Of a stretch of DNA of 64,000 nucleotides, positions 59,595-59,833 are shown in pieces. A program made the position numbers and the translations under genes. The stretch is from assembly GCF_988243305.1 (NCBI RefSeq), contig NZ_OZ547136.1; one strand, given 5' to 3'. A model generated the notes under the pieces. The model worked only from the letters and a program-made list of their open reading frames with translations, was not told where the DNA came from and ran no database searches. The first letter of the stretch is position 1; the number at the start of each line of letters is the position of its first letter.

Positions 59595-59761
59595 TCCATA
59601 TCTCCATGAGGTAACTACGAAAATAAAATGGGTATCGCTCACATCTTCTTTACGTCCCCTTGCGTACGGCAGCATCGCGGTGGACTTATTTGTATGCAGG
59701 TGATCATCCCAGAAAGCCGGAACAGCCTCTGATTTGTCAGCCTTTTTTGATTGCGGCGTAA

Positions 59762-59790
59762 CGATAATGCAAACGATAACAATTATCAAT
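59762..59790 (-). promoter_or_regulatory. Fur box(es) in cirA promoter region
   Basis: Minus-strand TTGATAATTGTTATCGTTTGCATTATCGT resembles the GATAATGATAATCATTATC Fur consensus. Confidence 0.55.
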
Positions 59791-59833
59791 CCAAATGATA
59801 AATTTTATATCCGCATGATTTGTCAGGGAAATG

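Follow-up and report, generated by a model that had tools for sequence, protein, structure and literature searches.

The stretch of DNA analysed here (the window, 64,000 nucleotides in all) carries cirA on its minus strand, with the ATG at 59594 and the coding region at 57615-59594, as placed by translation and by alignment with K-12. Read from 59594, the minus strand translates into the CirA precursor. Upstream of it on this strand lies lysP (59886-61355), recognised from the list of open reading frames and from the lysP annotation of matching genomes. The intergenic region between the two is 291 bp long (59595-59885). Within it, a terminator scan found the intrinsic terminator of lysP at 59843-59866 on the minus strand (AAGCCCTCTCAACCGAGAGGGCTT and then a run of T); it is conserved across species and is the upstream boundary of the cirA control region. 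The gene order in K-12 is yeiG-cirA-lysP-yeiE, and the window holds the same gene between the same neighbours, yeiG-cirA-lysP. Of 5,426 complete E. coli genomes, 5,425 contain the 361-bp stretch at 59540-59900, and the annotation there is always cirA and lysP.

Identity to the 24.5 kb at 39500-64000 reached a maximum of about 99.3% among the complete RefSeq E. coli genomes, a collection that has Shigella genomes outside it, and identity to cirA plus its leader a maximum of 99.5% among the complete E. coli genomes. With a ceiling of about 99.3-99.5%, the source strain is therefore poorly represented in the complete RefSeq E. coli collection.

The original prediction placed a Fur-box-like sequence about 170-195 bp upstream of the cirA ATG. 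The sequence is there: the top match to the 19-bp Fur consensus in the intergenic region is GCAAACGATAACAATTATC at 59769-59787, which lies at -175 to -193 from the ATG and agrees at 14 of 19 positions. Taken alone, this match is statistically unremarkable. Ten sites in the 64-kb window match the consensus with five or fewer mismatches, none anywhere in the window does so with three or fewer, and nine other places equal or better the 14/19 at cirA. After the search at three mismatches came up empty we scored Fur sites by mismatch ranking together with a hexamer-array score. The GATAAT-type array at cirA reaches 21/30 across five hexamers from 59757, which ties for second to fourth best in the window. 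Shuffling reproduced that score rarely: three times in 1000 for the intergenic region and six times in 1000 for the AT-rich 80 bp surrounding the array. At least three GATAAT-like hexamers are present in the array.

The Fur operator, a set of overlapping GATAAT-type hexamers (plus strand ...ACGATAATGCAAACGATAACAATTATCAATCCAAATGATAAA...), is placed at 59759-59801, 165-207 nt upstream of the ATG, by the alignment of the K-12 footprint, the hexamer statistics and conservation. Chen et al. (2007) locate the DNase-I-footprinted cir Fur site of K-12 at 2244957-2244999, centred at -189 from the gene start, and describe it as three Fur walkers with 20.7 bits (PMC2189734). The 43-bp Fe-Fur DNase-I footprint on K-12 cir is that of Griggs and Konisky (1989), as reported by Chen et al. 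(2007; PMC2189734). Base-by-base alignment carries this footprint onto 59759-59801 with a single difference, T here for A in K-12 at 59798. In the alignment of 80 species the Fur core TTGATAAT is at least 90% conserved. Metal-dependent Fur binding and iron repression have been shown in K-12, and the near-identity of the sequences suggests that both would hold in this strain.

ALTERNATIVES considered here were a closer promoter, a structured cis-regulator or upstream open reading frame (uORF), and a chance AT-rich match. The last of these takes the Fur-box-like sequence to be non-functional as an operator in this strain, and it can point to the nine other places in the window with as good a consensus match and to the one operator base unlike K-12. 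The region is, however, footprinted in K-12, it overlaps the promoter and shows promoter-associated conservation in at least 60 species, and a hexamer array of this quality is seldom reached in shuffles. The T at 59798 recurs in six E. coli genomes that are 100% identical here, and it makes the hexamer more Fur-like, not less. We find a chance match scarcely credible and take the array to be the operator of cirA.

The base at 59798 falls both within the Fur footprint and within the putative -35 of the upstream promoter P1, which reads TTATCA here and TTAACA in K-12. The T gives a poorer match to the P1 -35 and a better local Fur hexamer (TTTATC against TTTAAC). In the six complete E. coli genomes the identity, T included, extends over the whole of 59540-59900; in the alignment column of 59798, T is absent from most other species.

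Fur-like sequences also occur elsewhere in the window. The Fur-box-like palindrome TAATTATTGAGAATAATTATTA at 46860-46890 lies about 160-180 nt upstream of a 412-aa open reading frame at 47043 (preT/yeiT); it stands high in the hexamer-array scan and corresponds to the predicted cluster given as 'yeiT -163, 19.6 bits' by Chen et al. (2007; PMC2189734). The top match to the 19-bp consensus in the whole window is GATAATGAGATTTATAATC at 17440-17458 (15/19), a sequence match only; it falls between yehK and yehL, about 170 nt ahead of yehL.

A consensus scan of the cirA strand found one sigma-70-like promoter. This is the major promoter P2 (59761-59789, minus strand), with the -35 TTGATA at 59789-59784, a 17-bp spacer and the -10 TATCGT at 59766-59761, matching the consensus at 9 of 12 positions. 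Its sequence is that of K-12, and it sits wholly within the Fur operator. For the minor, upstream promoter P1 (59773-59801, same strand) we infer a -35 TTATCA at 59801-59796, a 17-bp spacer and a -10 TATCGT at 59778-59773. These putative hexamers match at only 8 of 12 positions and were not listed by the promoter scan. P1 would lie about 12 bp upstream of P2 and start transcription near 59765. Guillier and Gottesman (2008) describe a cirA leader of 173 nt from p1 or 160 nt from p2 (PMC2588501), and alignment brings the p1 start of the 173-nt K-12 leader to 59765 in the window.

The major start can be placed from K-12 data. In the entries for b2155 in the K-12 SMRT-Cappable-seq tables, 18,356 reads begin at 2246931 in M9 and 160 in rich medium (PMC6131387, Supplementary Data 1). 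The K-12 ATG is at 2246769, so this start is at -162. By alignment it corresponds to a G at 59754 on the minus strand of the window, 7 nt downstream of the P2 -10, where the major start of this strain probably also lies. The 5' untranslated leader of cirA would then occupy 59595-59754 on the minus strand and measure 160 nt from P2 and 171 nt from P1; from P2 it is 160 nt here and 162 nt in K-12 because two single bases of K-12 are absent here.

The footprint at 59759-59801 covers -5 to -47 of P2, and P1 as well; at cirA the operator overlaps the -35/-10 or start of the promoter that it regulates. This is the usual geometry of promoter occlusion, in which the box is normally placed relative to the promoter. 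The box appears distant from the ATG because the transcript has a leader of 160-171 nt. The long 5' untranslated region that the original prediction offered as one explanation of the distance is thus borne out, both by the published leader lengths (PMC2588501) and by the K-12 reads that map to 59754, which are full-length reads of RNAs with a 5'-triphosphate. No major start lies within 50 bp of the ATG beside a different Fur site, that of K-12 being at -162.

The other explanation offered was that promoter elements closer to the ATG had gone unrecognised. Such a promoter, with a regulator site of its own, would make most of the cirA mRNA and leave the distal Fur box irrelevant or acting remotely. 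Extra K-12 cirA starts do appear in the operon table of the SMRT-Cappable-seq data, at 2246885 (-116), 2246870 (-101), 2246820 (-51) and 2246766 (inside the coding region, +4). Where the table entries show counts for these minor b2155 starts, they are 19 reads at 2246870 and 28 at 2246766, against 18,356 at -162; the entries for 2246885 and 2246820, and the further entry for 2246870 in the operon table, carry no visible counts (PMC6131387). The scan of the cirA strand over 59595-59750 gave no sigma-70 match, the best Fur box never lies 50 nt or less from the ATG in any species, and the conserved elements near the ATG are explained by the RyhB site, the OmrA/OmrB site and the Shine-Dalgarno sequence. 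An ATG-proximal promoter is close to refuted already, and we regard it as very improbable; the distal, Fur-covered promoters remain our reading.

One of these K-12 starts, 2246820, corresponds to 59644 in the window, the A of GAUGUGAGC, which is within the RyhB pairing site; weak internal initiation or an artefact of processing might explain it.

The position of the box was followed in 80 cirA loci, one genome per species, from the Enterobacteriaceae and Erwiniaceae. For 70 of the 80 the best Fur box has six or fewer mismatches; its centre then precedes the ATG by 91-203 nt, with a median of 184, and in none of the 70 is it as close as 50 nt. Short leaders bring the centre nearer, to about -125 (Enterobacter), -117 (Atlantibacter) and -91 (Leclercia); in Leclercia the promoter almost abuts the RyhB site.

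From the operator to the ATG, this strain differs from K-12 at five points: the A/T at 59798, two 1-nt deletions and two substitutions. None of these touches the -35 or -10 of P2, the RyhB site, the OmrA/OmrB site or the Shine-Dalgarno sequence. In an alignment of 81 upstream regions conservation is high over the promoter and operator and very low between about -60 and -155, a region where gaps are frequent and which is partly deleted in Enterobacter, Leclercia and Atlantibacter. Within the leader, conservation is limited to the last 55 nt or so, which hold the RyhB site, a U-rich spacer, and the OmrA/OmrB site with the Shine-Dalgarno sequence. The conserved islands near the ATG are TGTGAG(C) at about -50, found in 70 of the 81 sequences, and ACCTCATGGAGA, which immediately precedes the ATG and is nearly invariant across the 81. 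Deleting -149 to -55 in K-12 left expression and OmrA/OmrB control largely intact (Guillier and Gottesman 2008, PMC2588501), and the genera with short leaders, in which the promoter is nearer the ATG, agree with that result.

A GC-rich segment of the type GCC(N)5-8GCGGGCGG is seen in many non-Escherichia species (loci L009-L063), at about -80 to -55 and just upstream of TGTGAGC. It might form a small hairpin, which RNAalifold did not call; the motif is missing in E. coli.

The RyhB pairing site is GAUGUGAGCGAU, at 59645-59634 on the minus strand (-51 to -40), and is complementary to nt 41-52 of RyhB (AUUGCUCACAUU); the leader thus contains the complement of the RyhB core GCUCACA. We predicted duplexes by running 24-nt windows of the leader against the seed regions of the sRNAs, as whole-molecule RNAduplex runs against the full-length sRNAs gave meaningless long-loop duplexes. 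With the K-12 RyhB sequence this yields 12 consecutive pairs at -16.9 kcal/mol. The duplex energies of the leader do not surpass those obtained with shuffled leaders (16% for RyhB, 61% for OmrA/OmrB) and are non-significant; the pairing sites therefore rest on conservation and on published mutants. A search for the exact ATGTGAG found the RyhB site in 27 of the 81 sequences, an under-count, given the 70 that have the conserved core.

Wang et al. (2015) used an oligonucleotide, JW5381, that turns TGTG into GTAT in the cirA RyhB element (PMC4666370), and the mutated bases are exactly within the predicted site (59643-59640). Their Fig S3 combines wild-type and mutant cirA fusions with wild-type and mutant RyhB, the ryhB mutation being antisense to the cirA mutation, and they report that direct activation of cirA by RyhB was confirmed (PMC4666370). 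As summarised by others, Salvail et al. (2013) found that translation of cirA is blocked by Hfq bound close to the ribosome-binding site, and that RyhB pairing undoes the block, giving more sensitivity to colicin Ia under iron starvation.

Between the RyhB site and the ribosome-binding site lies the U-rich spacer CAUUUUAUUUUCGUAGU (59614-59630, minus strand), a candidate Hfq site. A high U content is kept in nearly every species despite variation in the sequence itself. We infer that this spacer is probably the element through which Hfq binds and represses translation.

The OmrA/OmrB pairing site, UACCUCAUGG (-19 to -10), lies at 59602-59613 on the minus strand and overlaps the Shine-Dalgarno GGAG at 59605-59602. 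The prediction is a 9-bp duplex between UACCUCAUGG and nt 2-10 of the sRNAs, which is the published duplex, so that the 5' ends of OmrA and OmrB pair with the translation initiation region. The sequence here is that of the validated K-12 site. Guillier and Gottesman (2008) showed with compensatory mutations that pairing of -10 to -19 with the OmrA/OmrB 5' ends is sufficient, and that repression of cirA by these sRNAs depends on Hfq and RNase E (PMC2588501). The EHEC-specific sRNA Esr41 represses cirA too. That the leader might be a target of sRNA regulation, as the original prediction proposed, had thus already been published for OmrA/OmrB, for RyhB with Hfq, and for Esr41 in EHEC.

A leader of this length could instead act in cis, as a riboswitch, thermosensor or attenuator or through a regulatory uORF, and not as a platform for trans-acting sRNAs. 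An ATG-initiated small open reading frame does begin at 59706 and runs for 22 codons to the TGA of GATGTGAGC, and Guillier and Gottesman note that other controls might work through the leader (PMC2588501). The sequence nevertheless has none of the signs of a structured cis-regulatory leader. An Rfam scan found no family in the leader, the sub-threshold matches falling only on the lysP terminator; its minimum free energy is not more stable than that of shuffles (z = -0.15); and RNAalifold on -80 to +30 of the 81 sequences gave no conserved structure, with -0.56 kcal/mol and 0 covarying pairs. The poorly conserved stretch from -60 to -155, with its partial deletions in three genera, also speaks against cis control, as does the K-12 deletion of -149 to -55, which retains activity and regulation (PMC2588501). 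A cis-acting leader is hard to believe on this evidence, and we keep to one that is acted on by sRNAs and Hfq.

The uORF from 59706 was the only sizeable one. We rejected it, as a 1-nt indel shifts the frame between this strain and K-12.

The coding region departs from K-12 in a way that the control region does not. By translation and alignment, codon 277 of cirA (58766-58764, minus strand) is a TAA stop where K-12 has TAC for tyrosine, and CirA is cut after 276 of its roughly 660 residues. A search of 5,426 complete E. coli genomes with the 41-mer centred on the base that makes the stop gave no match, whereas the wild-type 41-mer matched 5,404 of them, 5,352 at 99% identity or more. A sequencing error would account for the stop, as would a loss of the receptor particular to this strain. 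If it is not an error, the strain is devoid of functional CirA. Loss of functional CirA brings resistance to colicins Ia and Ib and lower uptake of catechol-type siderophore conjugates. An intact promoter and leader beside the stop would fit a recent inactivation.

Further along the gene, codons at about 507-511 (58062-58076) differ from the K-12 FVGFETGANGRRIP, and the loop region is 4 residues shorter here; this is probably a natural allelic variant. The whole cirA gene is matched at 99% identity or more in only 131 genomes.

Taken together, these observations leave us highly confident that the region is the ordinary, well-characterised control region of cirA, the E. coli gene for the receptor of catecholate siderophores and colicins Ia/Ib. 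K-12 experiments, with sequence identity and conservation here, establish the promoter/Fur geometry, the start site and the RyhB and OmrA/OmrB pairing sites. In iron-replete cells Fe2+-Fur on the hexamer array at 59759-59801, lying over the -35 and -10 elements of the overlapping sigma-70 promoters P2 (start 59754) and P1 (start about 59765), would exclude RNA polymerase from both. The last 55 nt or so of the leader would serve as a post-transcriptional control module. In this module Hfq, bound near the ribosome-binding site, would repress translation; RyhB, itself repressed by Fur, would pair with GAUGUGAGCGAU at -51 to -40 and relieve the Hfq repression, turning translation on when iron is scarce. 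OmrA and OmrB, pairing with UACCUCAUGG at the Shine-Dalgarno region, would repress translation and trigger decay by RNase E.

The region is a member of the K-12 cir/cirA system and not a variant of it. The P1/P2 promoters and Fur operator of K-12 cir (Griggs, Tharp and Konisky 1987; Griggs and Konisky 1989) have the same promoter/operator sequence as the window. The differences are one substitution in the operator/P1 -35, a leader that is 2 nt shorter and has two substitutions, and the nonsense codon in cirA. The RyhB site AAGAAGAUGUGAGCGAU and the OmrA/OmrB site with the Shine-Dalgarno sequence, UUACCUCAUGGAGAUAUGGAAUG, are identical to K-12 and conserved across genera. Directly 3' of the RyhB site K-12 has GAUAACCC and this strain GAUACCC.

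Like cirA, the genes fhuA, fepA-fes and fecA have Fur hexamer arrays over the -35 and -10 and are controlled by promoter occlusion (PMC2189734). The Fur cluster centres lie at -45 for fhuA and at -25/-86 for fepD-entS, against -189 from the gene start for cirA (PMC2189734), where the centre is so far out because the leader is long. Leader length is the only peculiarity of cirA beside the other Fur-controlled receptor genes in Chen et al. (2007), and it is already explained by sRNA and Hfq control.

The activation of cirA by RyhB also has a counterpart, in shiA. Activation of shiA works by opening an inhibitory hairpin over the ribosome-binding site, and that of cirA is described as antagonism of Hfq-mediated repression. 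The cirA leader is predicted to form no stable inhibitory structure, which is consistent with the Hfq-antagonism mode and unlike shiA. Both mRNAs are activated translationally by RyhB pairing in the 5' untranslated region (PMC4666370).

The arrangement is already known, the promoter and operator having been mapped in 1987-1989 and the sRNA control worked out in 2008-2015. The practical use of the present analysis lies in annotation: the cirA start, the Fur operator and the RyhB and OmrA/OmrB sites are now placed in window coordinates, and the control elements are intact in a strain with a broken cirA coding region. The comparison across species makes a small addition, namely that the distance from the Fur box to the ATG ranges from about 90 to 200 nt while only the last 55 nt or so of the leader are conserved. 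Additional, Escherichia-specific post-transcriptional control might reside at about 59655-59754, in the poorly conserved 5' two-thirds of the leader of E. coli, though this is unlikely; Guillier and Gottesman (2008) raised the possibility of other controls through the cirA leader (PMC2588501). Such control might take the form of another sRNA, an RNase E entry site or a site for an RNA-binding protein. If it exists, it would explain why leaders are 160-175 nt long in Escherichia, Salmonella and Klebsiella and much shorter in Leclercia.
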